Shown: in pieces, positions 7,441 to 60,975 of the stretch
Layout of the letters: every line of letters begins with the position of its first letter
Numbering within the stretch: position 1 is the stretch's first letter
NCBI GenBank assembly: GCA_049297675.1
Contig: JBAQUS010000011.1
Span: forward strand, 101,184 to 165,183
Source: Minisyncoccia bacterium
GTDB taxonomy: Bacteria > Patescibacteriota > Minisyncoccia > Phycocordibacterales > DATDWN01
Direction of reading: 5' to 3'
Length of the DNA: 64,000 bases
Made by a program: the position numbers and the translations under genes
The notes under the pieces: model-generated
What the model was told of the DNA's origin: nothing
Database searches by the model: none
The model's input: only the letters and a program-made list of their open reading frames with translations

Positions 7441-7546
7441 CGCGATACCAATTTACGAATACATGCGAATGATACGAATAAATACAAAACAGTTGCACCC
7501 ATTCGTTTTATTCGTATAATTCGTTGATTCGCATCGATATTATTAT
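7441..7546 (+). repeat. palindromic ACGAAT-triplet intergenic element (rpsL-rpsG spacer)
   Basis: gcgataccaatttacgaatacatgcgaatgatacgaataaa ... cattcgttttattcgtataattcgttgattcgcatcga; fills the entire spacer. Confidence 0.7.
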
Positions 7547-8244: not shown

Positions 8245-8793
8245 TTGAAGCACATGAAAACTGAATCTTTAGAAGCTTTTCCACCACCATATCTAAGAAG
8301 TCTGGATGAGATCTTGGGTTTTTCGGAAATACCGGAGGATAATTTTCAAGAATTGAAGTCCAGGTATATAGAATTGTATAAAAATAGTTTTGTTAAGTCA
8401 GTAAGAGACAATGAAGAAATAGATATGGAGTTATCGGAGGAAGTTTTGGATGAAGGGGGGACTGACGGGCTATTTAATGAACTTGAGGATTATTATAAAA
8501 AAGAAATTTGGGATAAATTAGTTGACGAACTAGTAAGAGTCGCTCCAGATTTTAAAGGTTTAAAGGTTCCCTCACCACTTAGACCTGAAGATTCAAAAAT
8601 TGAATTTGATGAGGATTTAGTTGACGCAGGCTTGGATGAAAAAAATAGAGATGTGCTGGACGAATATAGAAAATTACAAAAAAGTGCTCTTGAAATGTGT
8701 CTTAAGTTTTCAAAAAGAATTTCTAGGGAGGTGTTAAGAGAAAGTGTAAAAATGGCACGTATAGAGTTAGGATTAAGAAATATTGTTAACTAA
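8245..8793 (+). CDS. hypothetical acidic protein
   Basis: ORF track; no family recognised. Confidence 0.35.
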   Translation: MKHMKTESLEAFPPPYLRSLDEILGFSEIPEDNFQELKSRYIELYKNSFVKSVRDNEEIDMELSEEVLDEGGTDGLFNELEDYYKKEIWDKLVDELVRVAPDFKGLKVPSPLRPEDSKIEFDEDLVDAGLDEKNRDVLDEYRKLQKSALEMCLKFSKRISREVLRESVKMARIELGLRNIVN

Positions 8794-8913
8794 TATTAGA
8801 TTGTAATAGAAAGGAATTTTTTTCAACATAGGAATTTCATTTTATGTGCGAACCAGCGAGGGGAGTCTTCGGTTACTCGCTTACCAATTGTGTTCTCTAT
8901 TTTTCCTAATAAA

Positions 8914-8949
8914 ATAAAGTATCATATACGCCATGGCGTATATGATACT
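8914..8949. promoter_or_regulatory. 36-bp perfect palindrome centred on CCATGG, about 80 bp upstream of the Cas2/VapD-like gene
   Basis: aaagtatcatatacgccatggcgtatatgatacttt is identical to its reverse complement. Confidence 0.5.
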
Positions 8950-9027
8950 TTTATGGTATTCTCAGGGCAGGGGAATGTTGTTATAGATTTGTAATATACT
9001 GATGCATTAAATATATAGAAATCTCAA

Positions 9028-9417
9028 ATGAAAAGAAAATACTTAAGATACAAAGGAATACGAGTCAACGCTTTTGGTATTCCTGTGTCAGGATATGTTG
9101 ATAAAAGTAAAGGCAAAAAACCTATTAAAAAGAGGGATATTTATCACACCTCTTTTCCATCAGTTTTCAAAGAGAATTCTCCTAAAAATCTTATTGTTAT
9201 GTATGATATTCCACATGAATTAAAAAAGGAAAGAGACTGGTTTCGGCGACATCTTATTAAGTTTGGATACAAAATGATACAAAAAAGTGTTTGGGTGGGA
9301 CCATCCCCACTACCAAAAGAATTCCTCAAGTATTTAGAGGAAATAAAAATTGGAAATAGGTTAAAAACCCTTAAATTAGCCAAAACATACAATCCTACTA
9401 TATCAGCCATGGCGTAA
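9028..9417 (+). CDS. Cas2/VapD-fold endoribonuclease-like protein with a basic N-terminal extension of about 55 aa; solitary (no cas1, no CRISPR array)
   Basis: NLIVMYDIPHELKKERDWFRRHLIKFGYKMIQKSVWVG ... NRLKTLKL follows the Cas2 pattern (LVxYDV ... RRLRKxLxxYGxRVQxSVF ... RIYRL). Confidence 0.4.
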   Translation: MKRKYLRYKGIRVNAFGIPVSGYVDKSKGKKPIKKRDIYHTSFPSVFKENSPKNLIVMYDIPHELKKERDWFRRHLIKFGYKMIQKSVWVGPSPLPKEFLKYLEEIKIGNRLKTLKLAKTYNPTISAMA

Positions 9418-9481
9418 ATGATGATATCTAGGATTTCATGGTTATAAAATGGTCAATTAAATATTAGCTTTTTTTGGGTAA

Positions 9482-9534
9482 CTTGCATTTTTAGTGGGGG
9501 GGTAAAATAATGGTATTAAAATTAGCTTAAAATT
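9482..9534 (+). promoter_or_regulatory. conserved promoter/leader module, copy a (TTGCAt, 7 G's, TAAAAT ... ttaaaattATG)
   Basis: cttgcatttttagtgggggggtaaaataatggtattaaaattagcttaaaatt followed by ATG at 9535. Confidence 0.45.
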
Positions 9535-10203
9535 ATGAATGAAGGAAAACTTGAAAATAGTGATGACTTATCTATTGCCCCTCAAGAAGGATTAGATGGG
9601 CAAGTTGAAGATTATGATGCAGAAAAAAATTGGCAAGAATATATAAGAGATGGACGTCGAGAGCCGATGTCTATGGATCGTATATACTATATAATCCAAC
9701 GAGAAGATGGTCGGGCAGCCAGAATGGCGTTAAGTCACGCAGTTAATAGTGAGAGAGAATTTAAAAATGGAAAAGCGTGGTCTCCTCGTTCAGGAATAGA
9801 TTTTCCAATAGATGTGTCAGGACTTAATGAAGAGGAAAAGGATAAAATAGATCTTAAAGTGGGTAGTCTTGTCAAAGCATGGATTTTAGAACACGAACAA
9901 CAACAAGAATTAATGTTAGCAAGAGAAGAAGCTTTACGTGGTAATACCACAAAACTTATGAGTCTTCTCGTGGCATCTATGAGAAACGTAATAAACTCAG
10001 AGAGTCCGGAAACAGCCTTCAAATATATTTGTGGAATATGGTCCAGGAGTGATGGGGAAGATTATGAAGCAAATGCAACAGATTCTCCTCGTGAACTGAT
10101 GGATCATCCACTTCGTTATTTACCGAGCGATGTACAAAAAAAATTTGAGGATGAGTATAAGAGAGAATTTAGGAGCATGTTGGATGAGGAAAATGAAAGG
10201 TAA
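9535..10203 (+). CDS. hypothetical acidic protein
   Basis: ORF track; no family recognised. Confidence 0.35.
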   Translation: MNEGKLENSDDLSIAPQEGLDGQVEDYDAEKNWQEYIRDGRREPMSMDRIYYIIQREDGRAARMALSHAVNSEREFKNGKAWSPRSGIDFPIDVSGLNEEEKDKIDLKVGSLVKAWILEHEQQQELMLAREEALRGNTTKLMSLLVASMRNVINSESPETAFKYICGIWSRSDGEDYEANATDSPRELMDHPLRYLPSDVQKKFEDEYKREFRSMLDEENER

Positions 10204-10290
10204 AACTAATGGATAAGCAAGGTAAGCTATTGCTTTAATCAATCCTGAAAATGTTTAAGCTAGGGGAGTCCTCGCTTAAACTCGATTTAC

Positions 10291-10566
10291 TTAAAAAAGT
10301 TCGGAATGGTTGCCAATGTCGATTAATATCAAAACGAGCTCTCTTTTTCGGATTTGATAAACTAGAAGCAGGTCACCTTTAATGTGACACTCACGGAGGT
10401 TGTGCATACTTCCATGTAAAGAATGGTCTTTGTATTTTAGTGGGAGTGTTTTTCCTGAAGCTAGTATTTCGACAGCTGTTTCGATTTCGACCCTTTTGAT
10501 CTTCCCAGAGTGCATGACTTTCTTAAGGGATTTCTCAAATCTCTTAGTGAATATTTTTTTATACAT
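10291..10566 (-). CDS. yafQ: YafQ/RelE-family mRNA interferase toxin
   Basis: TLPLKYKDHSLHGSMHNLRECHIKGDLLLVYQIRKRELVLILIDIGNHSELF matches the YafQ pattern (LPxxYKDHxLxG ... REcHI ... DxLLIY ... GTHSxLF). Confidence 0.7.
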   Translation of the reverse strand: MYKKIFTKRFEKSLKKVMHSGKIKRVEIETAVEILASGKTLPLKYKDHSLHGSMHNLRECHIKGDLLLVYQIRKRELVLILIDIGNHSELF

Positions 10567-10583
10567 TTATTTTCCACTAAAAT

Positions 10584-10859
10584 TTAGACCAAAATATCAT
10601 CAAACATTTCTCGGGTAGAAGAATATCTTTTGCCGTGCTTTAAAGCCTCCACAGCCTCCCTTTCATATTTCTCAATTATTTTAGGATTGTATTTGTGAGT
10701 AAAACCAAATGGGCAAACATAAGTAAGATTATTAGGGTCGCTTTCTCTGGCCAAAAGAAACTTTATTCCGGAAGACAAATCAAGCCCCATATTCTTAAAC
10801 ATTTTTATAGCTTTTGTTTTTGTTGCCTTGTCTATTCTAATTTGTAGTGTTGTGTCCAT
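10584..10859 (-). CDS. dinJ: DinJ/RelB-family antitoxin, partner of the YafQ toxin
   Basis: MDTTLQIRIDKATKTKAIKMFKNMGLDLSSGIKFLLARES matches DinJ; the ORF-track start at 10943 is an upstream extension. Confidence 0.65.
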   Translation of the reverse strand: MDTTLQIRIDKATKTKAIKMFKNMGLDLSSGIKFLLARESDPNNLTYVCPFGFTHKYNPKIIEKYEREAVEALKHGKRYSSTREMFDDILV

Positions 10860-10936
10860 TTGGACAGTATAAAAAAATGTAATGATAATGTCAATACATA
10901 CTTTGTTGTAAGTGAAGGTGTACTTACCTACAATGA

Positions 10937-10998
10937 CTTGCAATTTTTACGGGGGGTAAAATTGAGGTATTAAAGTTAATACTTAAAAGTATAAAATT
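10937..10998 (+). promoter_or_regulatory. conserved promoter/leader module, copy b (TTGCAA, 6 G's, TAAAAT)
   Basis: cttgcaatttttacggggggtaaaattgaggtattaaagttaatacttaaaagtataaaatt followed by ATG. Confidence 0.45.
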
Positions 10999-11409
10999 AT
11001 GGAAACATACCACGATAGTTCTGGTCAAGAAATAAGTAGGGAATCTTTTATTGAATCACAGGAGAAAGAACATGATATTGAAGAAAGACTTTTGAGAGAG
11101 TCAGGGTGGTCACCGCTAGATGTTGTTCGTACTTTCTATCTATATGATAAATATGATGAAGCTAATCGTGACCAAGCGATAGGTGTAAAAAGGACTGTCG
11201 TTGTAATTGACACAACCATTCCGTCATACGGGTTTGATCATTGGGAAATTAATGGTGATGTTTTGCCACCAGATAATTCTGCAAAAAGTATATCAGTATA
11301 TGAATGGGTGAAGAACGGTGATGAGTATAAATGGGTTGAGATCGAAAGATATAAATGTAGTTATGATGGTGGTAAGCAGGGTGAATGGAAAAGTCTAGAT
11401 CTGACATAA
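10999..11409 (+). CDS. hypothetical protein
   Basis: ORF track. Confidence 0.35.
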   Translation: METYHDSSGQEISRESFIESQEKEHDIEERLLRESGWSPLDVVRTFYLYDKYDEANRDQAIGVKRTVVVIDTTIPSYGFDHWEINGDVLPPDNSAKSISVYEWVKNGDEYKWVEIERYKCSYDGGKQGEWKSLDLT

Positions 11410-11476
11410 ATACACTAAAAGAAATCCATATAGCTCAATAATTGACTATAAGTTTATCTTAAGATAAACTTATAGT

Positions 11477-11728
11477 ATGACTAAAATCAAGGATAAAATA
11501 ATAGGGCTTAAAGAGCTTAGGGAGAATACTGAAACTTATATTTCCCAAGTGGAAAAAGGTAAGTCTTTTGTGGTTATGCGAAAGTCAAAGCCAGTTTTTA
11601 CTATTTCTCCAGTAGACGAATGGGGAGATGAGGGTACCTGGGAAACAGTCGTAGACTTTAATGAGATAAAAAAAGGTGGTGTTCCAATTGAAGATGTGAT
11701 AAGTAGTTTGAAAAGATTAAATAGATAG
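11477..11728 (+). CDS. Phd/YefM-like antitoxin
   Basis: KIIGLKELRENTETYISQVEKGKSFVVMRKSKPVFTISPVDEW fits the Phd/YefM pattern; immediately precedes a RelE/ParE toxin gene. Confidence 0.5.
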   Translation: MTKIKDKIIGLKELRENTETYISQVEKGKSFVVMRKSKPVFTISPVDEWGDEGTWETVVDFNEIKKGGVPIEDVISSLKRLNR

Positions 11729-11735
11729 CTTATTT

Positions 11736-11969
11736 ATGAATAAAATAGATAAGTTTCTGAAAAAACTAATAACAGGCGACAGAGTTTTTATTTTAAAAGT
11801 TTTGAATCAAATATATTCTGGAAATTTCGAAAATTTACACGTAAAGAAGCTAAAAGGATTTAAAAATAAATACAGAGTTAGGGTGGGTAGAATAAGGATA
11901 ATATTTACTAAAGAAAGAGAAGGAATCAGAATTGATAAATTAGATTTTAGGAGCGATAATACATATTAA
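11736..11969 (+). CDS. RelE/ParE-family toxin
   Basis: KKLKGFKNKYRVRVGRIRIIFTKEREGIRIDKLDFRSDNTY fits the LxGxxxxYRxRVGxYRIIY ... I ... HR motif. Confidence 0.6.
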   Translation: MNKIDKFLKKLITGDRVFILKVLNQIYSGNFENLHVKKLKGFKNKYRVRVGRIRIIFTKEREGIRIDKLDFRSDNTY

Positions 11970-11977
11970 CTAATCTA

Positions 11978-12172
11978 ATGGAGACATTCTGGGACTTATT
12001 AAAAGATCCGGCACATTGGTGGTTTGAGTTATTTCTCATTTTTATTTTCGACGTAGTTGTCGGACTTATTGTTTGGCCGTTTGTCCAAAAGGCACTTATT
12101 CACCATAAATCCGATCACGAAAGACTAGAGGATTTAGAGAGGGAGGTGGAAAAACTAAGAAATAAAATGTAA
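11978..12172 (+). CDS. small membrane protein, hypothetical
   Basis: ORF track; one TM helix plus a charged tail. Confidence 0.3.
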   Translation: METFWDLLKDPAHWWFELFLIFIFDVVVGLIVWPFVQKALIHHKSDHERLEDLEREVEKLRNKM

Positions 12173-12174
12173 TT

Positions 12175-12435
12175 TTATCTGTATCCATCATGGTCATCAA
12201 TTGCCAGTAAGTACACTTCGTTTTTTAGTCCATATTGAAATATTATTCTGTCTTTACGATTAATCCAAAAGGCATATTTATCGCTCAGTCTACCGTGCAG
12301 TTTATGAACTTTCAGTCGCTTGTGGTTAAGAGGGTTTTCAAACAGTTTTATTTTTTCCAAAACCTCCTCATAGAATTTATTATCCAACTTTTTTAACTGT
12401 TTAATAAATGTGTGCGTATATATAAGACTAATCAT
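12175..12435 (-). CDS. RelE/ParE-superfamily toxin
   Basis: FIKQLKKLDNKFYEEVLEKIKLFENPLNHKRLKVHKLHGRLSDKYAFWINRKDRIIFQY ... VYLLAIDDH. Confidence 0.5.
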   Translation of the reverse strand: MISLIYTHTFIKQLKKLDNKFYEEVLEKIKLFENPLNHKRLKVHKLHGRLSDKYAFWINRKDRIIFQYGLKNEVYLLAIDDHDGYR

Positions 12436-12437
12436 AT

Positions 12438-12662
12438 TTAGTCTTTAAATTTTCTAACTATTTCTCTCAGGTCTCCACTAAAGACCCTGCCATTTTTTAT
12501 ATCCTTCTCTGCTTCAAAGATATTTTTTAGCAGTTCTTCTTCTGCATATAAATCTAATGCTTGTCTGACGGCATGGGCCTTATTAGCTGCCTTACCGCTT
12601 TTTACAAGGGAAGATATAAACCTTTCATTTTTTGGTGATATGGGTACTGATATTGTAGTCAT
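12438..12662 (-). CDS. ribbon-helix-helix (CopG/ParD-like) antitoxin, partner of the 12175..12435 toxin
   Basis: MTTISVPISPKNERFISSLVKSGKAANKAHAVRQALDLYAEEE; 3-nt gap to the toxin gene. Confidence 0.5.
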   Translation of the reverse strand: MTTISVPISPKNERFISSLVKSGKAANKAHAVRQALDLYAEEELLKNIFEAEKDIKNGRVFSGDLREIVRKFKD

Positions 12663-12810
12663 ATGATAATATATTAATTTATATGATATTATCATATATT
12701 AATAAGTAACTAAATGTCAAATTTACTTACTGATATTGCTCAAAATAGTCTTTTAGTATATAGTTTTCTCGTATCCCGAGAGGGTATTTTATTTACCACA
12801 ATAAATGAAT

Positions 12811-12923
12811 CCCGTTAGAGGCCGCGGTCGCTTACGGGTTAAGGAAATTAAGTAATTAATTAAAATTATCAATATTAATAAATATGGTATGGTAACGGAA
12901 GACCGCGACCTGCCTCTAACGGG
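12811..12923 (+). promoter_or_regulatory. long imperfect inverted repeat CCCGTTAGAGGCCGCGGTCG ... CGACCGCGACCTGCCTCTAACGGG whose right arm abuts the fusA ATG
   Basis: arms at about 12811-12830 and 12900-12923 around a 69-nt AT-rich loop; ATG at 12924. Confidence 0.5.
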
Positions 12924-15065
12924 ATGAACCGCGATTACACACTAGACAAAGTTAGAAACTTCGGAATCATTGCTCATATTGATGCTGGAAAAACAACCAC
13001 ATCCGAGCGTGTGCTTTTTTATACTGGAATGACTCACAAAATAGGTGAGGTGCACGAGGGGGAGACGGTGACTGACTGGATGGAGCAGGAAAGAGAAAGA
13101 GGTATTACAATTACAGCTGCGGCTATTACCTGTTTTTGGAATCCGACATACAGAGAGAAGGGTAGCAAACCTGAGTATCGTTTTAATATTATAGATACTC
13201 CAGGGCATATTGATTTTACTGCGGAAGTAAAGAGGTCACTTAGAGTACTCGACGGGGCGGTTGTGGTTTTCGACGGAGTGGCGGGAGTAGAACCACAGTC
13301 CGAGACAAACTGGAGATATGCGGATGATGGAAATGTTCCGAGAATCTGTTTTATAAATAAACTCGATAGAACAGGAGCATCATTTGAAAGAAGTTATGCT
13401 TCTATTTTGGATAGACTAACAAAAAACGCTGTCAGGGTTCAGATTCCAATCGGTCTTGAGGACAAGTTTGAAGGAGTTATTGACCTTATGAAAATGAAAG
13501 CTTTTTACTTTGAGGGAAACATGGGTATGCAAATAAAGGAAGCTGAAATTCCTGCTGAGCTTCTAGATGAGGCCAAAAAATATAGAGCAGAGCTTGTCGA
13601 AAAAGTTGTTGGAGAAGATGACAATCTAATGTCTGCGTATCTTGATGGTAAAGAGCCAACTACCGAGGAGCTCAAATTAACCCTGAGAAAAGCTACCCTT
13701 GCTGTAAAACTTGTACCAGTTTTTGCTGGATCAGCACTGAAAAACAAGGGAGTTCAGCTAGTTTTGGATGGTGTTGTTGATTACCTACCATCACCTTTGG
13801 ATATTCCTCCTGTACACGGAACTGATCCTAAAACAGGTGAAGATATTTTCCGAAACGCATCTGACTCAGAGCCATTCTCAGCACTTGCTTTCAAGCTTCA
13901 AAACGATCCTTTCGTTGGACAATTAACTTTCTTTAGAGTTTACTCTGGGACTTTAGAGGCAGGCACTTATGTCTACAATTCGACTACCGGAGAGAAAGAG
14001 CGTCTGGGAAGAATTGTTCGCCTTCAGGCGGATAAGCGTGAGGAAGTTAAAAAAGTTTTTGCGGGGGAGATCGCTGCGGCAGTAGGTCTGAAGTCAGCTA
14101 AAACGTCTCATACGCTATGTGATGAAAATAATCCGATTGTTCTTGATCCTATCAAGTTTGTTGATCCAGTGGTGTCTTTGCGTGTTGAGCCGAAGACCAA
14201 AGCTGATCAGGAAAAAATGGGTATGGCACTTAAAAAACTTTCTGACGAAGATCCAACTTTTGTTATTTCATCAAACTCTGAAACAGGCGAGAGTATTATT
14301 TCTGGAATGGGAGAGCTCCACCTTGAGATCATGGTTGATCGTATGAAGAGAGAATTTGGTGTAGAGGTAAACGTCGGCAAGCCACAAGTGGCATACAGAG
14401 AAACTATATTAGGTTCTGCAGAGGCTGAACACAAATACATAAAACAAACTGGTGGTAAGGGTCAATACGGACACGTTAAATTGACCATCAAACCACTTGA
14501 GAAAATAGAGGAAGGGGCAAAAATCCCTAAAAATGTTAAGAGATACGATGACTTCGAATTTATAGATTCAATCAAAGGTGGTGTTATTCCGCAGGAATTC
14601 ATTCCAGCGGTTGAAAAGGGGGTTCATGAAGCAATGGATCGTGGAATAGTGGCGGGTTACAAAATGGTAAATATTTCTTGCGAACTGACATTTGGATCGT
14701 ACCACGACGTGGACTCATCCGAAATTGCATACAAGATCGCTGCCTCGCAAGCTTTTCAGGAGGCTGCTAGGAGAGCTAGACCAGTAATACTTGAGCCAAT
14801 CATGAAAGTTGAGGCTGTTATGCCTGAGCAGTTCATGGGAGACATTACAGGTTCGCTTTCAGGAAAGAGAGGACAAATAGAAGGTATGGACGAGAGAGGA
14901 ATGCTTCGAGTAATCCACGCCAAAGTTCCACTTTCTGAAATGTTTGGATATACAACTGACATACGTTCAATGACCCAAGGCCGTGGCTCAGTCCAAATGG
15001 AATTTGATCACTATGAAGTAGTACCACCAAACGTGGAGAAAACAATCATTGAATCGAGGAAATAA
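12924..15065 (+). CDS. fusA: elongation factor G
   Basis: [29 protein letters not shown]-domain motifs and full-length EF-G similarity. Confidence 0.95.
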
Positions 15066-15960
15066 AATTATTTTTATTGAATTGAGGTATAATGAAAGAA
15101 TGTCAGAATCATTAGATAACCCAGTAGTTGTCGCAGAACCAACTATAGACAATACTGAAGAAAGATCTAGATTGCTAACTGAATTGGCTGAGAAGCTCGA
15201 GGGCTTTTTTTATGATCCAGATCAGAATGTTCCAGGTATAGAAAGAGAGAATTATGTTGATAATTTGTTAATAAATAGAAAAGTTATTGACTTTATTGAA
15301 CATAATCCAGGCAGTTTTGACTTGTTTTTTATTTATTTAAGTCGTCAAGTTTACGATAAGGATCAGCTGGAGTCATTGCTAAAAAACATTATTCTAAGAG
15401 AAGCTGAGAAAACCAAAAATCAAGTAGAATTGGTTGAAAGACTATGGGTTAGTCCACTGGCTTCAGTAGAAGAATATGAGTTGGGTGTTTACAAAGAGCA
15501 AATAGAGAGTCAGGTCAGAGATGCTGTCTTGGAATTAAAAAGAAAGGGTTATAGACCATTTGGATCTGGTTTCGGAGACCTAGTATCCGGTACACAAGCA
15601 ATACTTTTGAATAAGGAAGGAGTTGAAATAAGTTTGATTACAGAGAATTTAAGAGGTGAGAATGTGGAAATAGTTGAAGAAGAAGATAGAATACAAATAA
15701 TATTTAAGCCGACAGACTCAGAAACATCTATGGAGGAATTAAAAAAAGTTTGGAATAGAATAGTTTCAAAAATTCCATCAGTAAAGGATAATTCAAAATT
15801 AAGGTTGTCAGATAATGGTAGGCAAGGCAGTGAGTTTAGAGAAACTCAAAACAAAATCAAAAAAGGACAGAATGCTTGGTTAAGAAACGGATTAGCTTTT
15901 GTTGATGGAAAAGTAGTTGAAATGTCGTATGAGGATTTTCAGATTTTAATGAATAAATGA
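15049..15960 (+). CDS. hypothetical protein (probable start at the internal Met near 15100)
   Basis: ORF track; no family recognised. Confidence 0.35.
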
Positions 15961-15985
15961 TTTGAGAGAAGAACTACAGGGATTC

Positions 15986-16085
15986 ATCCCGTTAGAGTTT
16001 TGCTTGTTAACAATGTATTTTAAGTAATAAACAGGTTATCCCATAATATTTTTATATATGTTTGATTATTAAACTCTAACGGGAT
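15986..16085 (+). promoter_or_regulatory. 15-bp perfect inverted repeat ATCCCGTTAGAGTTT / AAACTCTAACGGGAT enclosing a 70-nt AT-rich loop, ending 11 nt before the ATG at 16097
   Basis: arms at about 15986-16000 and 16071-16085. Confidence 0.5.
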
Positions 16086-16096
16086 AAAATTAGTCA

Positions 16097-17362
16097 ATGG
16101 TTACTACTACTGACTTAAAAAAACCTATACCCTCGCCTTTTGATATTTTGACTTCTCAAACTGAGAAAGTTGAAAAAAGTGAAACAAGTGATATTTATAA
16201 TATTCCTATAAAGAAGATATTTGACAGTGTTCCGAAGCCGACTGAACTAGAGCCTTTGATGGGAGCTGATGGTTCGCAAAAAATTCCAATAAACAAAAAA
16301 ACATCACCGAAAAAAAGTTTCTTTGTTCCACAAATTGCATTAGACTTTGTAGAGAGTCTAATAAGAAATAATAGACCGCTCAAATCTCTGAGGTTTGATT
16401 TGGAGGAGTCAAATTCAATCGAAGAAGCTTTGGAACACATTGATGATTCAAAACTTCTATTAATTTCTGAAAAACAAGATTTACTCAAGATTCTCGGTTT
16501 TGAAGATAAGAGTCCTGAGGCAGAAGTAATTTTGGACGAGGAGCTTGCAAAAGCAAGGAAAAATTATATTTCTTTACAAGGTCCTTACATAAGAAAAAAT
16601 CAGATTCACAAAGAGAGCTACGCAAAGATCATGGCTGATTTTGGAGTAGAAAAAGAGATGCCTAAGAGAGATGTACCGAAAGAAGTTATGGAAGCAAGAT
16701 TGGAATACGAAGATTTGAAATTGAGGAAGAAAGGTCTTCTAGGTGAAAACAGTACAGAGTTTATTGTCACGGAACAAGAATTTTTTTCCGACGAGTTGTT
16801 CAAGATCGTCAAACCAGAAGCTTCTCCATACATTAGTAAGCTTTCAAACATATGGAATCATTCGGAGAATGATAGTTCAATTGATTTTTTACTACTAGAC
16901 ATTGATTTTTTGAAAAAAACAGAGTCACAAGAGGCAGTCTTTGAGGGGTTGAGAACTGAAATAAATCTTACAACCACTGAAGTTTCACCTATTCTAGCGA
17001 ATAAAGTTGAAAACGATACGATACTTGCAAAAAGAGCTGAAAATGCTGAAAACCTGCCTGTGGAGAACTTCTCTGTACAAAAGGAGGTCTTTGAGCAAGA
17101 ATCGGCTAGTCCGAAAGAAGAGGTATTCCCCTCAGAATACGAGGGTAACCAGATAAAGGTAATAAAAGAGGGTATAGATGACACTTTTATTATTAGGGTA
17201 ACATTCAATGATAAGGACATTGCTCTAGGTGAAATCGTAAAAAATAACCTAAAAATAAAGTTAAAACCGGAGTTTAAGGCAGGATGGTTTTATGTAAAAA
17301 CACCAGAAGAGAGAGCTTTTAAGGAGAAAATATTGCCATTTCTTAAAACTCTCAAATCTTAA
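16097..17362 (+). CDS. hypothetical acidic protein
   Basis: ORF track. Confidence 0.35.
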   Translation: MVTTTDLKKPIPSPFDILTSQTEKVEKSETSDIYNIPIKKIFDSVPKPTELEPLMGADGSQKIPINKKTSPKKSFFVPQIALDFVESLIRNNRPLKSLRFDLEESNSIEEALEHIDDSKLLLISEKQDLLKILGFEDKSPEAEVILDEELAKARKNYISLQGPYIRKNQIHKESYAKIMADFGVEKEMPKRDVPKEVMEARLEYEDLKLRKKGLLGENSTEFIVTEQEFFSDELFKIVKPEASPYISKLSNIWNHSENDSSIDFLLLDIDFLKKTESQEAVFEGLRTEINLTTTEVSPILANKVENDTILAKRAENAENLPVENFSVQKEVFEQESASPKEEVFPSEYEGNQIKVIKEGIDDTFIIRVTFNDKDIALGEIVKNNLKIKLKPEFKAGWFYVKTPEERAFKEKILPFLKTLKS

Positions 17363-17954: not shown

Positions 17955-19157
<1,203 letters not shown>

Positions 19158-30358: not shown

Positions 30359-30622
30359 ATGGAAACCAAAAGCCTAAAAATGGAAGTTTCAAAAAAGAAG
30401 ATCTTGACCGGGATTGTAATTTCAGACAAGATGAAAGAAACTGTTGTAGTAGAGGTGGTAAGGTTTGTTAAACACCCCAAATATGGCAAGTATTATAAGG
30501 TCAACAAGAAGTACAAAGCTCACGATGCTGGGAATACTAAGAAGATAGGGGATAGGGTTCTGATACAGGAATGCAGACCGATATCGAAAGATAAACATTT
30601 CGTCGTAATTCAAGGAGCGTAG
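30359..30622 (+). CDS. rpsQ: 30S ribosomal protein S17
   Basis: [41 protein letters not shown]. Confidence 0.85.
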
Positions 30623-30639
30623 TGACTATGAATTACACG

Positions 30640-30790
30640 ACCCAGCCCTAATTTTACGAAACAATTATGAATAAAATATTAAAAAACCACATATCTGGCA
30701 TTGAAAATAATTTCTTGTCTTGCAGACAAGAAATTGGAATGATACCTTTAGTAAAATTAGGGCTGGGTGGTGATTTTTATAATCGCTTCG
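30640..30790. repeat. roughly 150-bp element bounded by a perfect 17-bp inverted repeat (ACCCAGCCCTAATTTTA / TAAAATTAGGGCTGGGT) with an inner palindrome ttcttgtcttgcagacaagaa; rpsQ-rplN spacer
   Basis: read directly from the sequence; the minus-strand 70-aa ORF inside is probably spurious. Confidence 0.5.
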
Positions 30791-30809
30791 CTCGTTAAAA
30801 ATCAACCAA

Positions 30810-31181
30810 ATGATACAACCAAGATCAATAGTAAAAATAGCTGATAACTCTGGAGCAACTTTGGGCAGAATTTTCAAAGTACTCGGAAGTTCAAAAAAGA
30901 GATATGCCAGTATAGGTGAGAAAGTTGTGTTATCAATCCAGAAGGCTCAGCCAAGAAAGACAACAAAAAAGAAGGATGTTGTTTATGGGCTAGTTGTCAG
31001 ACAAAAGGCTCCGTTTAGAAGAAAGGACGGTTCATATATAAGGTTTGATGAAAATGCAGTGGTTATAGTTATGAAAGACAAACTTGAACCAGTTGCCGGT
31101 CGTGTTTTCGGTCCTATACCTAGGGAAATCGGTGAAGTAGGATATCAAAAGATTATTTCTTTAGCACCAGAAGTGGTTTAA
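30810..31181 (+). CDS. rplN: 50S ribosomal protein L14
   Basis: MIQPRSIVKIADNSGA ... full-length L14. Confidence 0.9.
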   Translation: MIQPRSIVKIADNSGATLGRIFKVLGSSKKRYASIGEKVVLSIQKAQPRKTTKKKDVVYGLVVRQKAPFRRKDGSYIRFDENAVVIVMKDKLEPVAGRVFGPIPREIGEVGYQKIISLAPEVV

Positions 31182-31288
31182 TGCGATGCAAATATACGAA
31201 TACATGCGAATTATACGAATAAAAAAAAGTGTGTGTTGCGTTTATTCGTTTCATTCGTATAATTCGTAGATTAGTATCGAAAACATTT
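31182..31288 (+). repeat. palindromic ACGAAT-triplet intergenic element (rplN-rplX spacer)
   Basis: tgcgatgcaaatatacgaatacatgcgaattatacgaat ... cgtttattcgtttcattcgtataattcgtagattagtatcga. Confidence 0.7.
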
Positions 31289-31507: not shown

Positions 31508-31618
31508 AAAAGCGATACAAATATACGAATGACATGCGAATTATACGAATTAATACCAAACATATCTTGCATTCATTCGTTTCATTCGTATAATTCGTAG
31601 ATTAGTATCGATATAAAC
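31508..31618 (+). repeat. palindromic ACGAAT-triplet intergenic element (rplX-rplE spacer)
   Basis: agcgatacaaatatacgaatgacatgcgaattatacgaat ... cattcgtttcattcgtataattcgtagattagtatcga. Confidence 0.7.
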
Positions 31619-43312: not shown

Positions 43313-43320
43313 AATCTCGA

Positions 43321-43425
43321 CAAACCAAAACCTTTTTAGAGACTCTCGGAGGCTGACGAGCCGAGAGTGAGCAAATTTCTAGCCCAGAAATTATGTGTGC
43401 TCTAAAAAGGTTTTGGTTAGTAAGA
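43321..43425 (+). repeat. copy 1 of an ~85-bp direct repeat containing a nested inverted repeat
   Basis: ttttagagactctcggaggctgacgagccgagagtgagcaaatttctagcccagaaattatgtgtgctctaaaaag. Confidence 0.55.
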
Positions 43426-43717
43426 GATTTTTTACAACCTATCTCAGATTTTTTTCAAGTTGTGTCAGGTCTAGTGAAAGGTATAATTATATGGGGTTAC
43501 ATTAGATATTTTCTACCTAAAATTTTTTTAGGGAGCCCGAATCTTTGTGTCGCGATGAGCGTTTACTCGTTCTGACTTACACATATGAGGGCACCCACCT
43601 GCGGTAAAACGTAGGGGAATATCTATGTGACCCCACTAAAGGCCCCGCCCCTGAAGTATTGGCGGAGTTTTTAGTAAGAGAAGTTTGTTGTACAATGTAT
43701 TAACCGTGAATTAAAAA

Positions 43718-43842
43718 ACTCGTCGAAAACATAATTTTTTAGAGACTCTCGGAGGCTGACGAGCCGAGAGTGAGCAAATTTCTAGCTCAGAAATTATGTG
43801 TGCTCTAAAAAGTTATGTTGAGTAAGAGTTTTGTAATCAACA
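43718..43842 (+). repeat. copy 2 of the same direct repeat, flanked by the conserved gene-proximal module ...gttgagtaagagttttgtaatcaacaATG
   Basis: near-identical to copy 1 (one C/T difference in the core); the same upstream module is found before comEC at 1836-1975. Confidence 0.55.
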
Positions 43843-50696: not shown

Positions 50697-51220
50697 TTTA
50701 TAACTCTATGTCAAGGGGTAGTTTGGGCGCCGAAAGGGTGGCTAAGATGTTGAGACTTTTATGAAGAAAGGGCAGTTGGTTAGGAATGATTTTAGTTTCG
50801 TTAATACAAGAATCACTTCATTGCTCAATAGTTTTTTATTAGACGAGGTGTCTTTTACTGAAAGCGTGTCCTGAGCCATGTTTTAAGTATTTTTCAAATT
50901 TTAGTGCCTTATTTTTATTTGGAAATGCGCAAAACCAGATTAATGAGAATGGAAGTTTAGTTTTTGAGTATCTAGACTCCCCGTTATTGTGTTCTTTTAG
51001 TCTATTCTTGATGTTTTCTGTGCTTCCGAAATATAGACTACCATCCTTCTGACTTTTTTAGAATGTAAACATAGTGCATATAAAGAATATATATCCTGCG
51101 TCGCTTGATTACAAGCTATGCAGGATCCACTGCTTCGCTAACAAAAAACCTCACAGGTTGTGTGAAGTTTCTTGTGCTAAAGGTATTTAGTGCCTGCACT
51201 GCGTAGCTTTAGCGAAGCAG

Positions 51221-51617
51221 TGGAGATGCCGATAGTTGAAATCGGGTCCATAAAGTGAATCGAGACAGATCTACAATACTTAGTTTACTTAAAGTTTTAA
51301 TCCGTGTTGCTTAGAGTAAACCAAACACAACACGGACGATCTTCTATTTTCTGGTTTCACTCGAAGAAAGTGAAACTATAACCTTAGTTTATATCAATCA
51401 TCTCCTCCTTAAAGGTTCAAGAGGAGAGACCGTCGTTTAGGTGTTGAGTTTAAGCAACTGCGTAAGCGAAAGCAAAATCGTTTGCTCCAAAATATGGAGA
51501 AGCGGATGCTTTTTTAGATAAGTTTTTTACACTTAATCTTTCCAGACTTTTTAAGAGTTTCTGGAGCTCTGTATTGCCTGAATCAATATCGTCTTTATGT
51601 CAAAACCTGTCATCCCC
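51221..51617 (-). ncRNA. ssrA: tmRNA (ssrA), about 397 nt, predicted tag peptide (A)ANDFAFAYAVA
   Basis: minus-strand 5' end GGGGATGACAGGTTTTGACA resembles GGGGCTGATTCTGGATTCGAC; the 3' end CCGAT-TTCAACT-ATCGG-CATCTCC-A forms a T-arm and a 7-bp acceptor stem with the 5' end, including a G3:U70 wobble pair; internal ORF GCA AAC GAT TTT GCT TTC GCT TAC GCA GTT GCT TAA at about 51450-51485; smpB lies immediately upstream. Confidence 0.6.
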
Positions 51618-52502: not shown

Positions 52503-52727
52503 TTTTTGACGGCAAGTTTTTCACGGGGCGACGAGAGTCGTCCCGTCTTAGTTTTCTATTTGCTAAAACACTAACGGGATGTATATTTCTCCAAAATTTT
52601 TGAACAGTCTATATACATTAACTTGATGCTATAGCATTAGATTAGTGTATGTATTGATGTAGGTTAAAACAAACTTTTTTGCTTTGAATTTTTTGATATT
52701 AATGTATACTGTGGCTACTTCTAAAAG

Positions 52728-55294: not shown

Positions 55295-55368
55295 GCGCGT
55301 ATAGCTCAGTTGGTTAGAGCATCGAGCTTATACCTCGAGGGTCCCACGTTCGAGTCGTGGTACGCGCA
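55295..55368 (+). tRNA. tRNA-Ile with anticodon UAU (reads AUA directly)
   Basis: gcgcgta / tagctcagttggttagagc / a / tcgag-cTTATAc-ctcga / gggtc / ccacg-ttcgagt-cgtgg / tacgcgc-a gives a clean cloverleaf with U33 and anticodon TAT; CCA not encoded. Confidence 0.8.
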
Positions 55369-55373
55369 CATCT

Positions 55374-57962: not shown

Positions 57963-58251
57963 ACCCCCGAACTAATTAGGACTTTGAATTATGTTCTATG
58001 TGTATATATTAAAAAGTGAAAAGGACAACAATCTTTACACTGGGTATACAAATGATCTTAAAAGGAGACTCATAGAACATAATTCAGGTAAAAGTAAGTC
58101 AACTAAATCGAGAAAACCATTTGAGTTGATATATTACGAAGCAAGGATGACGCTACGCATAGGGAACAAATGTTAAAGGAATACGGTAGATCTCTAGGTG
58201 GCTTAAAAAGACGAATAAGCATGAGTCTTAAGTCCTAATTAGTTCGGGGGT
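57963..58251. mobile_element. 289-bp cassette bounded by perfect 22-bp terminal inverted repeats (ACCCCCGAACTAATTAGGACTT) that encloses only a GIY-YIG nuclease ORF
   Basis: left arm about 57963-57984, right arm about 58230-58251 (exact reverse complement). Confidence 0.5.
57991..58176 (+). CDS. GIY-YIG nuclease (UPF0213-like), interrupted by an apparent +1 frameshift near 58140-58150; the downstream frame continues ...DDATHREQMLKEYGRSLGGLKRRISMSLKS to 58238
   Basis: YVYILKSEKDNNLYTGYTNDLKRRLIEHNSGKS is the GIY-YIG motif; the C-terminal homology resumes in the +2 frame. Confidence 0.55.
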   Translation: MFYVYILKSEKDNNLYTGYTNDLKRRLIEHNSGKSKSTKSRKPFELIYYEARMTLRIGNKC

Positions 58252-59598: not shown

Positions 59599-60897
59599 AT
59601 GAAAAAAATTTTCCTATCGATCTCAAGTATCATATTCGCTGGAGCAATCCTTGCCGGAGGGACGGGGGCTTTTTTCAACAGCCAAAACACTTCAACTGGC
59701 AATACTTTTGCTACAGGCATTATTGATTTGAAGATTGATAATGAAAGTTATGTTACGGACGAAAACGGAAAACTGGTTTTCAGTCCTAGCACATCTTGGG
59801 CACTATCGACTTTGATAGGGAAACTTTTCTTTAATTTTCCAGACATAAAACCGGGAGACATTGGAGAAGACACCATATCGCTTCATGTAAGCAACAACAA
59901 CGCTTGGGCATGTATGAATATAACTCTGACAGGTACGCCAGAGAATGGTCAGAGCGAACCAGAAGCTCTAGTGGACACAACTACTGGAGTGAATGACGGT
60001 GAGCTTCAATACGAGCTCTATTTTGCATTCTGGGCAGATGATGGAGACAATGTCTACGAGTCCAACGAAAAAATCTTTAAGCAAGGACTTGCTAAAGATA
60101 TTTTCAATGGTGAGAGCTGGCCACTTTCTGATTCCAAATCAAACATTTGGAGTCCTCCACCTTGGCCAATCCAAGCTGGAGCCACAAAGTATATTGCAAA
60201 GGCCTGGTGTTTCGGTGTTATGGGTAAGACTCCTGTAACACAGGATGGTCTTGGTAAAACTGGCTCAAACGGACCACTAGCGAGGGGTACTGGTTTTACT
60301 TGCGATGGAGAGCCACTAGGAAATATTTTGCAGTCAGATGGTATTACTGCGGATGTTTCTTTCACGGCAGTTCAGTCACGTAATTATCCAGAGTTTGTTT
60401 GCGGACAAGGAGAGCCAGCACCAATACCACAAACTTCGACACTTTTCTTCGACAACTTCGAAAGCTATGAGGTTAACACCAATGTTGATCCATTAAATCT
60501 AAAGTGGGTACAAGTTGGTGGTGTGCAAGCAATATGGGGTCTGGATGGGAAAGTAGCTGATTTAGATACTGGTGATGGATCTGAAACCATAACTTCGAAA
60601 AGTTTGGATCTTTCGATTTATCACGACATCACTCTAAAATACAGCAGAAAAAGTGACGATACGGCTGGCACTGTAGATCCACAAACACTAAAGGTGGAGT
60701 ATAGCGTAGACGGCGGTGGAAATTGGACTACGCTTGAAACCATAAACGGGGAGACAGTGTGGACAACAAAGACGTTCAGTCTTTCTCCATCCGCAAATAA
60801 CAAGTCGGATGTCAAAATACGATTTGTTTTGACTGGTACAAATAGCACAAATCATGTTTACATAGACAACGTTTCTCTGACAGGAGTGACACCATAA
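59599..60897 (+). CDS. TasA/camelysin-like secreted protein, paralogue 2, with an additional C-terminal beta-rich domain
   Basis: shares the N-terminal module (GTGAFFNSQNTSTGNTFATGIIDLKIDNESY ... ISLHVSNNNAWACMNITLT ... ADVSFTAVQSRN); the C-terminal domain ending YIDNVSLTGVTP is shared with paralogue 3. Confidence 0.6.
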   Translation: MKKIFLSISSIIFAGAILAGGTGAFFNSQNTSTGNTFATGIIDLKIDNESYVTDENGKLVFSPSTSWALSTLIGKLFFNFPDIKPGDIGEDTISLHVSNNNAWACMNITLTGTPENGQSEPEALVDTTTGVNDGELQYELYFAFWADDGDNVYESNEKIFKQGLAKDIFNGESWPLSDSKSNIWSPPPWPIQAGATKYIAKAWCFGVMGKTPVTQDGLGKTGSNGPLARGTGFTCDGEPLGNILQSDGITADVSFTAVQSRNYPEFVCGQGEPAPIPQTSTLFFDNFESYEVNTNVDPLNLKWVQVGGVQAIWGLDGKVADLDTGDGSETITSKSLDLSIYHDITLKYSRKSDDTAGTVDPQTLKVEYSVDGGGNWTTLETINGETVWTTKTFSLSPSANNKSDVKIRFVLTGTNSTNHVYIDNVSLTGVTP

Positions 60898-60975
60898 AAA
60901 ATAAAGAAAGACCGTATACAAAATTAACAGAATTATTGTGACAGTAACGAAGGATCGTGATCTGTCTCTAACGGG

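Follow-up and report, generated by a model that had tools for sequence, protein, structure and literature searches.

Inverted repeats enclosing AT-rich loops stand upstream of two genes in the 64,000-nucleotide stretch of DNA analysed here (the window), and a third gene takes its start codon from the same repeat. The question raised by this locus is what kind of sequence would come to lie at start codons in this way. The hairpins formed by CCCGTTAGAG and CTCTAACGGG are best read as the two ends of a piece of mobile DNA of about 100 bases that is widespread in the ultra-small CPR bacteria. In all likelihood, it is a MITE-like non-autonomous mobile element that hits start codons and rebuilds the ATG; the gene would still be expressed via the retained upstream AUG.

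Copies in the window

Exact copies of CCCGTTAGAG were found on the forward strand at 12,811 and 15,988, its reverse complement at 12,914, 16,074, and 60,966, and a one-mismatch copy of the repeat motif ending at 52,578. With at most one mismatch allowed, the motif was matched 9 times against 1.9 expected, a number reached in none of 100 shuffles. The genome holds two intact copies of the element (at fusA and orf16097), a tasA3 copy with a decayed distal arm, and a relic at 52.5 kb, and two further copies follow directly beyond the end of the window.

Copy 1 (12,810 to 12,924, forward strand; 115 bp) belongs to the long-arm 'a' subfamily and lies upstream of fusA. Its left arm (12,810–12,829) and its right arm (12,901–12,924, with an ACCT bulge at 12,908–12,911) are separated by an AT-rich interior. 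The copy ends on A12924, which doubles as the first base of the fusA ATG and rebuilds the ATGAA start of the gene together with the proximal duplication TGAA at 12,925–12,928 of the forward strand. Upstream of the element, the ATGAA at 12,805–12,809 (forward strand, read directly) comprises the original fusA start codon and the left duplication copy, TGAA at 12,806–12,809. The direct ATGAA repeats at 12,805–12,809 and 12,924–12,928 had been missed in the original prediction. The predicted stem itself, with about 70 nt enclosed and its right arm meeting the ATG, proved real: it folds at −43.5 kcal/mol (z = −4.0) into an outer stem of 14 bp and an inner stem of 7 bp, with a 3' bulge of 4 nt (ACCU) between the two. 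The duplicated start codon opens a short upstream reading frame (uORF), MNPVRGRGRLRVKEIK and a stop (12,805–12,855, forward strand), which spans the entire left arm and is putatively translated.

Copy 2 (15,987 to 16,084, forward strand; 98 bp) is of the 'c' subfamily, beginning with TCCCGTTAGAGTTTT and ending with AAACTCTAACGGGA. Its stem arms at 15,986–16,000 and 16,071–16,085 agree in their coordinates with the predicted 15-bp pair placed 11 nt before the ATG at 16,097, with 70 nt between them and a folding energy of −30.1 kcal/mol (z = −3.4). The flanks, TTCA and TAAA, no longer form a matched duplication. A promoter-like site located by consensus scan (16,062–16,090, forward strand) spans the right end of the copy; a putative −35 element, TTGATT, belongs to the copy itself, the right repeat falls within the 17-nt spacer, and a −10 element, TAAAAT, belongs to the flank. 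The −10 element is followed after 6 nt by the ATG of ORF 16097, which implies a leaderless mRNA. The repeats had been described as engulfing start codons, and this applies to a single base, the A at 12,924 of the fusA ATG; the ATG at 16,097 lies 11–12 nt outside its stem and appears to coincide with a leaderless transcription start, which speaks against sequestration of the start codon at this copy. For copies that abut the ATG, sequestration is a plausible consequence.

The copy at the 921-aa gene (60,852 to 60,976, forward strand) has an intact right arm (60,944–60,976) that runs into the ATG at 60,976, so that CTCTAACGGGATG does supply the start codon, as had been noticed. Its left arm is decayed and its left boundary uncertain; the preceding ORF ends inside this arm, with its stop at 60,897. 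The copy was aligned with a-type copies, and a paralogue 4 kb downstream has an identical right arm, GATCGTGATCTGTCTCTAACGGGATGAA. The relic (52,541 to 52,579, forward strand) is an internally deleted c-type copy reading TCCCGTcTTAG-TTTT at one end and AAAACaCTAACGGGA at the other, then an ATG without a gene; only a 15-codon ORF comes after the site at 52,569, in line with the earlier description.

Build, mobility, and spread of the element

Further copies were recovered in an exact-pattern scan, which returned at least 120 loci; 127 copies were analysed among the matches listed. The sample comprises perfect 11-mers at a spacing of 65–95 nt, and its copies are not independent because some are related to each other. 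The element is bounded by a 13-bp terminal inverted repeat, TCCCGTTAGAG(NN)/(NN)CTCTAACGGGA, made up of an 11-nt core, invariant as fixed by the search, and two co-varying bases that complete a perfect inverted repeat. These bases, positions 12 and 13, are complementary in 86–87 of 91 copies. Elements are non-coding and fall within a narrow range of 88–120 bp. The interior is AT-rich and free in sequence, and sequence comparison found it unrelated between copies and subfamilies, while extensions of the repeat are subfamily-specific. An AT-rich or bendable centre fits such a build, since two close ends must be brought together. The family folds as stem, bulge, and stem with four compensatory pairs. 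Only short, unconserved uORFs are found as reading frames in the element, and there is no coding capacity for a transposase. Two loci (L014 and L027) contain tandem copies with a common palindromic junction, CTCTAACGGGATGAATCCCGTTAGAG.

The 4-mers flanking the element are identical in 89 of the 127 copies listed and vary together, with 13 different 4-mers represented. Matched flanks were TTCA in 36 copies, TGAA in 26, TCCA in 7, TAAA in 4, and TGGA, CTCA, and TTTA in 3 each, besides others. The target duplication is 4 bp of the form T-N-N-A, mostly TGAA, and 3 bp in a minority. The proposed comparison of the fusA upstream region in relatives yielded an empty site: with a relative whose EF-G is 89% identical (L121), the alignment continues across the promoter and the leader and meets just one ATGAA, and the element is absent upstream of fusA in every fusA relative examined. 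At least six copies occur in about 85 kb of GCA_049296815.1, clear paralogous pairs included. By eye, two Omnitrophota copies (L058) are very alike, as is another pair of copies from one genome (L032/L044). Co-varying duplications of 4 bp, the empty site, patchiness, and same-genome paralogues all support the earlier suggestion that the repeats are the footprint of a small insertion element ending in CCCGTTAGAG. Features of a MITE that are present are terminal inverted repeats, target duplication, small non-coding size, multiple copies per genome, and filled versus empty sites.

Nearly all of the matches listed came from Patescibacteria MAGs; Omnitrophota and other phyla contributed a few. The distribution is patchy: relatives' DNA, 581 kb in all, contained 0 exact repeats, against at least six copies in about 85 kb of the present genome. 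The 11-mer itself is shared unchanged by lineages of phylum rank. Four genes (murG, an RNase J-like gene, dus, and ftsH) were each struck repeatedly in different lineages; old orthologous copies and independent insertions are inseparable at those genes because the interiors cannot be aligned. Among the 120 loci listed, no repeat pairs lay more than 250 bp apart. The search for an autonomous element bounded by such ends found none and turned up decayed solo repeats only. No transposase domain was found in the ten window ORFs scanned. A plasmid BLAST for the element returned AT-rich noise only, and viral contigs gave zero matches.

Start codons as target and gene expression

In 92 of the 127 copies listed, the junction ATG, composed of the last A of the repeat and the TG of the duplication, opens an ORF of 50 aa or more. 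By eye, target genes with authentic-looking N-termini include LepA, MurG, DnaN, Ssb, GyrA, and TopA, all housekeeping. The element keeps one orientation with respect to the gene (50:2), as judged from the asymmetric motif CT[AG][CT]C by the repeat: 50 copies have this motif solely at the end next to the gene, 2 solely at the far end, and 5 at either end. A TANNNT box was found 4–11 nt upstream of 35 of 70 distal ATGs, compared with 14% of random ATGAA sites. A Shine-Dalgarno motif preceded only 3 of the 70 distal ATGs, and none was visible before proximal ATGs, where the bases are those of the fixed right arm. Because the target A|TGAA is duplicated, the old start codon, its native promoter, and its initiation context remain upstream of the element. 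An in-frame peptide-coding insertion was rejected, as lengths are spread over the three frames and none of the in-frame copies is open throughout.

Where a uORF is in the frame that meets the right-arm UAA, it runs the full way in 14 of 32 cases, compared with a mean of 3.9 for shuffled interiors; 14 was reached in none of 2000 shuffles. In these 14 copies, the UAA lies 4 nt before the AUG of the gene, and in 2 copies a UGA overlaps the AUG. The uORF peptides are not conserved. Most uORFs end within the element interior and, stopping further upstream, would at best unmask the AUG.

A transcript would start at or continue through the first AUGAA, then enter the hairpin, then the second AUGAA and the gene. 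Ribosomes initiating at the retained upstream AUG would translate a short ORF (MNPVR...) and melt the left arm; they would terminate at the right-arm UAA 4 nt before the gene AUG, or just free the AUG. The downstream gene is suggested to be expressed by this route. Because translation from the upstream AUG would open the hairpin, the gene would stay expressed and the insertion be tolerated. Some copies may add promoter parts, copy 2 giving the putative −35 element of a leaderless promoter. Coupling of termination and reinitiation has been reported at short stop-to-start distances (PMC6728339, PMC10666635), and the gap between uORF stop and AUG falls within these coupling distances. The difference is that the upstream frame here is made by a transposon duplicating a start codon.

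Genomes of CPR bacteria (Patescibacteria) are thought to be small, streamlined, and to contain little mobile DNA, and to our knowledge almost nothing is known of transcription and translation initiation in this group. In such a gene-dense genome, the start codon itself may be the safe harbour of the element, with the ATG rebuilt and the native initiation signals left upstream. As each copy marks a true start, and as many targets look leaderless, the copies could serve as a ready map showing where initiation signals lie in uncultured bacteria. They also constitute natural tests of uORF-hairpin coupling. Recognising the element averts mis-annotated starts and short MNPVR... ORFs, and its presence or absence offers a marker for strain-level typing.

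Other readings and known systems

The strongest competing reading, to which a limited but real chance is given, is that the hairpin serves the host chiefly as an RNA signal, a stem processed or bound in a sequence-specific way, for example by an RNase III-type enzyme or some other conserved factor. The stem would shorten the leader, perhaps restoring a 5'-terminal AUG, and would flank some tRNAs, mobility being its mode of spread. Conservation of the arms counts for it, as it does for the preferred reading. On its sequence, copy 2 is old and orthologous to the copy at L067 (Zambryskibacteria). Both arms of the latter are identical at 15 of 15 positions and the interior is near-random, in a background where identity has fallen to 31% in the neighbouring protein and to 33% at fourfold sites, which are saturated. 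The L067 locus carries the same arrangement, TTGATT-17-TACAAT-6-ATG, although neutral sites are saturated. In the preferred reading, too, the arms appear to have been kept later by selection in place, and arms kept by selection would serve the host or gene expression. The right arm is also retained where the left arm has decayed, the identical 11-mer occurs in distant lineages, and positions 12–13 and the inner stems co-vary. In three other genomes, tRNA genes lie exactly between the same arms with no duplication, the sole pointer to the processing site that had been suggested; tRNA-Thr(TGT) and tRNA-Pro(CGG) are placed so that the acceptor stem is extended. The cross-phylum 11-mer, the arms conserved at an orthologous locus, and the tRNA loci are features unforeseen by a plain selfish MITE.

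Against an RNA signal, folding is about as stable for one DNA strand as for the other, and hairpin stability alone is therefore no indication of a role in RNA; on the sense strand, G-U mismatches do not outnumber A-C mismatches. No match to the covariance models of Rfam 15 was obtained at the elements, at the gathering score or at E values up to 10. Co-varying ends are equally expected of transposase binding sites, and the right arm of copy 2 sits in a promoter spacer, so that transcripts begun at this promoter would lack it. A broader version, somewhat less probable again, is a leader that homes to start codons and has been adopted by the host, its arms being the signal for a conserved CPR factor. 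Leaderless genes would then possess two starts, the old and the new AUG adjoining at the foot of a hairpin, with ribosomes passed on by uORF-driven unmasking, reinitiation, or shunting across the stem, or with a cut in the stem that regenerates a 5'-terminal AUG, and the arms at tRNA genes would be processing stems.

Movement of the element in single-stranded form, driven by a HUH enzyme of the IS200/IS605 or RAYT type, with the flanking tetranucleotide as a recognised cleavage or target site, is improbable. It would account for the folding of the entire element as one hairpin, the strong orientation bias, and the flank preference for TGAA, as an element ending in TGAA and inserted 3' of TGAA would look identical. 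The repeats are, however, terminal and perfectly inverted, where a subterminal hairpin would be expected at each end. Flank variants (TGGA, TGTA, TGAT, TGAG, and TGCC) track the second codon of the target gene in several subfamilies, 3-bp duplication variants exist, and no Y1 transposase was seen.

It is very improbable that the arms are sites of a site-specific recombinase, either attC-like integron cassettes or an invertible promoter switch. GTTAGAG/CTCTAAC does resemble the attC core GTTRRRY/RYYYAAC, and the tandem copies at L014 and L027 have the palindromic CTCTAACGGGATGAATCCCGTTAGAG junction in common. The polarity is nevertheless reversed, 5'-GTTAGAG...CTCTAAC-3' on both strands as against 5'-RYYYAAC...GTTRRRY-3' in attC. 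Interiors are not flipped relative to the flanks (50:2), and variable matched flanks indicate target duplication, not a fixed crossover core; a recombination site was rejected on polarity and on the lack of flipped interiors, the latter speaking against inversion. A segment of 65–95 bp is in addition short for inversion by a recombinase. A non-mobile cis-regulatory leader (riboswitch, attenuator, or thermosensor) recurring by chance would explain a stable structure adjoining start codons in fixed orientation to genes, and is just as improbable: unrelated interiors leave no conserved aptamer, downstream genes are diverse and functionally unrelated, Rfam gave no match, and this reading is taken to be refuted already by the duplicated flanks together with the close relative's empty site.

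The preferred reading, a MITE-like element, has counterparts among known small mobile DNA. Correia elements (CREE/NEMIS) of Neisseria are non-coding, about 100–150 bp long, and occur in many copies near genes. They have 26-bp terminal inverted repeats and a TA duplication, are confined to one genus, and are not known to sit in start codons; they can give promoter parts, and their transcribed hairpins affect the neighbouring gene. The element described here is alike in size, non-coding nature, inverted ends, and copies near genes, and differs in its repeat sequence, 4-bp TNNA duplication, start-codon site, fixed orientation, and spread over a superphylum. Small size, inverted ends, target duplication, a transposase acting in trans, and effects on adjacent genes are likewise characteristic of RUP, ERIC/IRU, and MITEAba12 (PMC6382973 for MITEAba12). 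These are lineage-restricted and have an identified parent IS, whereas no parent was found here, and the present family differs in its unrelated interiors, narrow length, and start-codon target.

REP/REPIN sequences moved by RAYT are built from a pair of inverted units with a spacer between them; they carry a GTAG tetranucleotide and are not known to duplicate their target. REPINs are species-specific and intergenic, typically at gene 3' ends. Long hairpins, co-varying arms, and signs of long-term host maintenance are common to both, but the present element has matched duplications, no GTAG beside the arms, and an 11-mer common to distant lineages. Elements of the piggyBac/IS1380 type generate a 4-bp TTAA-like duplication and have CCC...GGG ends. 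Resemblance to them is limited to the duplication length and the T..A and CCC..GGG patterns, and no such protein was found. In the searchable literature, including work on CPR mobile DNA, leaderless genes, and start codons, no description of the element family was found, and literature matches to the 10-mers were unrelated primers only.

Hybrid promoters made by insertion sequences combine a −35 element in the IS end with a resident −10 element. Copy 2 is similar, its TTGATT lying inside the element with a flank −10 element 17 nt downstream, as conserved in the L067 orthologue. The arrangement is, however, clear in one copy only, and most copies abut the ATG, which leaves no place for a −10 element. 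An outward promoter as a general internal feature found no support, TATAAT-like hexamers showing no orientation bias (116 versus 103); like the many uORFs that stop in the interior, this is a weak point of the expression model. In some b-type copies only, suggestive −10 boxes stand 7 nt before the 5' hairpin.

Inverted repeats and hairpins in the window

The 10-mer CCCGTTAGAG occurred exactly at positions 12811 and 15988 on the plus strand and its reverse complement at 12914, 16074, and 60966, while a copy with one mismatch was located at 52569. With up to one mismatch allowed, the window gave nine matches where 1.9 would be expected, a count that no shuffle out of 100 attained. At fusA, the folded copy has a stem of 14 bp separated by a 4-nt bulge from a stem of 7 bp, which encloses approximately 70 AT-rich nt; the copy upstream of the ORF at 16097 (copy 2) forms a 15-bp stem enclosing 70 nt. 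The energies were -43.5 kcal/mol (z = -4.0) and -30.1 kcal/mol (z = -3.4), respectively. The opposite DNA strands of both copies folded about equally well. The inverted repeats noted at both genes are thus real, and the fusA 5' region formed a stable structure when folded as RNA. The original prediction that the stems engulf start codons held for one of the two full copies and there in part: the fusA stem contains the A alone of ATG 12924, from which the product begins with a canonical EF-G N-terminus, and ATG 16097 lies 11 nt beyond the second stem. No Rfam family matched the element.

Target duplication and distribution of the element

One genome per species was scanned for the pattern TCCCGTTAGAG-N(65-95)-CTCTAACGGGA, yielding at least 120 loci. 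The matches listed were almost all from Patescibacteria (Saccharibacteria, Paceibacteria/Parcubacteria, Zambryski-, Sungii-, Uhr-, Kaiser-, Taylor-, and Campbellbacteria), with a few outside in Omnitrophota, Elusimicrobia, WOR-3, Nitrospirota, and Phycisphaerae MAGs. Together with further copies within these loci and the two full window copies, 127 units were compiled. Among the matches listed, units measured 88-120 bp, most often close to 100-103 or 115-117 bp, and the 65-95 nt spacing searched may have partly set the 117-bp mode.

Left and right flanking 4-mers were identical and co-varied in 89 of the 127 units among the matches listed. TTCA/TTCA and TGAA/TGAA accounted for 36 and 26 of these, followed by TCCA (7), TAAA (4), TGGA, CTCA, and TTTA (3 each), and TTGA (2), while GGCA, TACA, TGTA, TGAT, and TCAA were seen once each. 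Copies in non-CPR phyla were mostly flanked by TAAA instead, and a 3-bp duplication occurred in a minority of units. Because variants with a first base other than T or a last base other than A exist, the duplication comprises 4 bp and is not an additional repeat base pair.

The fusA copy carries this duplication, AAATGAA[TCCCG...CGGGA]TGAACC. In the nearest metagenome relative, locus L121, whose EF-G is 89% identical, promoter and leader match those of the window but ATGAA stands only once, and removal of the element and one TGAA from the window gave a collinear alignment with it. No element was found upstream of fusA in the other relatives examined (EF-G 62-82% identical), and the exact repeat was absent from 581 kb of DNA of fusA relatives. 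In this genome, copies occurred at fusA, the ORF at 16097, and the 921-aa TasA-like gene, with a relic at 52.5 kb and two more copies 3-7 kb past the window end, one with the right arm of the TasA-like gene's copy and the other resembling the fusA copy. As read from the sequences, this pattern indicates a transposable element, amplified in certain genomes and missing from close relatives. Among the options originally offered, the small insertion element was therefore borne out by the duplications, the empty site, and the multiplied copies.

Tandem copies in two other genomes (L014 5472-5711 and L027 6503-6721) have one ATGAA in common, resulting in the palindromic junction CTCTAACGGGATGAATCCCGTTAGAG, and CTACAGGGA, resembling a decayed right repeat, lies 5' of copy 2 at 15974-15982. 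Ten window ORFs were scanned and lacked a transposase domain, the scan loci contained, among the matches listed, no repeat pair separated by over 250 bp, and neither viral contigs nor plasmids yielded a match. The element ends may resemble those of the piggyBac/IS1380 type, with a 4-bp T..A duplication and CCC...GGG. No publication describing the element was found in the literature. The best-supported interpretation is that CPR bacteria harbour a new MITE-like family with unusual habits, namely start-codon insertion, ATG regeneration, fixed orientation, and arms retained by selection; it bears on mobile DNA in streamlined genomes.

Start-codon insertion, retained arms, and expression of downstream genes

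In 92 of the 127 units among the matches listed, the junction ATG, composed of the final A of the repeat and the duplication's first two bases, opened an ORF of 50 aa or more. N-termini read by eye were canonical housekeeping starts, including LepA, MurG, DnaN, Ssb, GyrA, TopA, ClpB, FtsH, and ribosomal protein L2. The distal copy retained ATG in 70 of 91 oriented units among the matches listed, in keeping with an insertion target A|TGNA belonging to a genuine start codon. The interior is asymmetric, with (C)CT[AG][CT]C adjoining the repeat on the gene-proximal side, preceded 5' by either a long arm with an ACCU bulge or a local 6-7 bp hairpin after AC. Among the matches listed, 50 units had this motif solely on the gene-proximal side, 2 solely on the distal side, and 5 on both. 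The preference for start codons may reflect an enzyme recognising ATGAA or selection removing all other insertions. By a rough estimate, sequence preference and purifying selection together could yield approximately 60% at start codons; the share for TGAA-type copies among the matches listed was above this estimate.

At copy 2, the arms appear to be maintained. The Zambryskibacteria locus L067 is syntenic with the window from fusA through tuf and has a copy of the same subfamily (c-type) at the corresponding position, with the ATG of its homologue of the ORF at 16097 following 12 nt later. EF-Tu was 89% identical between the two, fourfold sites were saturated (33% identical), and the neighbouring protein was 31% identical. 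Both arms were identical at 15 of 15 positions, with a near-random interior. A dead MITE would no longer carry its repeats at such divergence; the arms must therefore have been kept for a role in RNA or DNA structure, or as a protein-binding site. Both genomes also kept TTGATT, a 17-nt spacer, and TAAAAT (L067: TACAAT), followed after 6 nt by the ATG; this would constitute a leaderless promoter with the -35 box in the element and the right repeat in the spacer. In the same direction as this conservation, tRNA genes were located exactly between TCCCGTTAGAG and CTCTAACGGGA without flanking duplication, the arms extending the acceptor stem (L045 2731-2821, L085 1158-1248, and L115 1405-1511; Thr-TGT twice, in two genomes, and Pro-CGG once). 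At L063, a copy was inserted directly at the CCA end of tRNA-Thr.

TANNNT ended 4-11 nt upstream of 35 of the 70 distal ATGs among the matches listed, compared to 14% of random ATGAA sites, and a Shine-Dalgarno-like motif preceded only 3 of the 70. Many targets were therefore probably leaderless or nearly so, and the element would now form the transcript 5' end, 5'-AUGAA-hairpin-AUGAA-gene; fusA, with a promoter and a leader of approximately 45 nt, is an exception. Neither a -10 box nor a Shine-Dalgarno fits the fixed bases before the proximal ATG. The distal ATG kept its native signals and opens a short ORF (uORF) encoding MNPVR and variable residues, and the right repeat provides stops in two frames by the gene AUG (CUC UAA CGGG AUG, and GGA UGA overlapping AUG). 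The UAA frame was the commonest, with 32 units compared to 19 and 19 in the others among the matches listed. In this frame, 14 of 32 uORFs were open throughout against 3.9 expected from shuffled interiors, and none of 2000 shuffles reached 14. Readthrough in frame into the gene occurred in none of the units, and the uORF peptides were mutually unrelated among the matches listed. This openness points to selection for ribosomes that cross the hairpin and terminate 4 nt short of the AUG, a distance compatible with termination-reinitiation (PMC6728339, PMC10666635).

The mechanism that we prefer, tentatively and with considerable doubt, is a coupling of uORF and hairpin. Initiation at the distal AUG would lead to translation of the uORF through the hairpin, and in UAA-frame copies the ribosome would stop 4 nt before the gene AUG, allowing termination-reinitiation. 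In other copies, including that of fusA, where the uORF has 16 codons and ends 68 nt from the AUG, its translation would at minimum open the left arm and make the AUG accessible. Alternatively, an internal promoter could drive the gene in some subfamilies, and a -10-like hexamer lies 7 nt before the 5' hairpin in some copies of one of them (b-type). RNA processing at the hairpin is also possible, and start-codon sequestration, the first role originally suggested, would at most be a consequence, for some copies only. The element bears on translation initiation in uncultured bacteria and offers clear tests.

Genome setting and other repeats

The window covers the ribosomal-protein/str-S10-spc region at approximately 38% GC, with tmRNA and tRNA-Ile(TAT), and an identical EF-G is also recorded in GCA_049296815.1 (contig JBAQTD010000011.1). 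Together with the synteny to L067, this places the organism among Patescibacteria/CPR of the Paceibacteria type. Between rpsG and fusA, approximately 4.6 kb (8245-12695) with hypothetical genes and with toxin-antitoxin-like pairs that match YafQ/ParE and PhdYeFM split the str operon. In the fusA leader (12737-12800), a short GC hairpin and a U-run come after a promoter-like TTGCTC-17-TATAGT. Its layout (aacgcCTCGgcgcTTTTTATTT) recurred 5' of fusA in many relatives (L132-L145, L149, and L189), suggesting a conserved leader of the attenuator type.

A second family of long hairpins, without Rfam match, was located at 43320-43421 and 43710-43837 (z = -6 to -8), with a diverged relative at 1818-1975. 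Its near-identical 58-nt core (ACTCTCGGAGGCTGACGAGCCGAGAGTGAGCAAATTTCTAGCyCAGAAATTATGTGTG) is bounded by TTTTTAGAG/CTCTAAAAA, the outer stems co-vary, and one copy stops 5 nt short of ATG 43843. Another hairpin meeting a start codon was found at 30596-30812, where 66-nt arms (76% complementary, 85 nt apart) end on the right in the ATG of ORF 30810. Intergenic CGAATnATACGAAT(A/T)AA palindromes recurred at 7466-7523, 31204-31266, 31537-31597, and approximately 1800, as well as upstream of fusA in other CPR relatives (L164, L180, L197, and L199). Three ORFs with GIY-YIG nuclease domains (57, 61, and 232 aa) occurred within approximately 25 kb, at approximately 57991-58176 and at 1-37 and 18178-18876 of locus L202; one overlaps a 19-nt inverted repeat at 57985-58086, and no connection of these ORFs with the element was found. 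A perfect 16-nt inverted repeat (51126-51141 and 51209-51224, 67 nt apart) overlaps with its inner arm the 3' end of the tmRNA gene (51220-51617, minus strand). The tRNA-Ile at 55295-55369 carries the anticodon TAT for AUA, an uncommon decoding route in bacteria.
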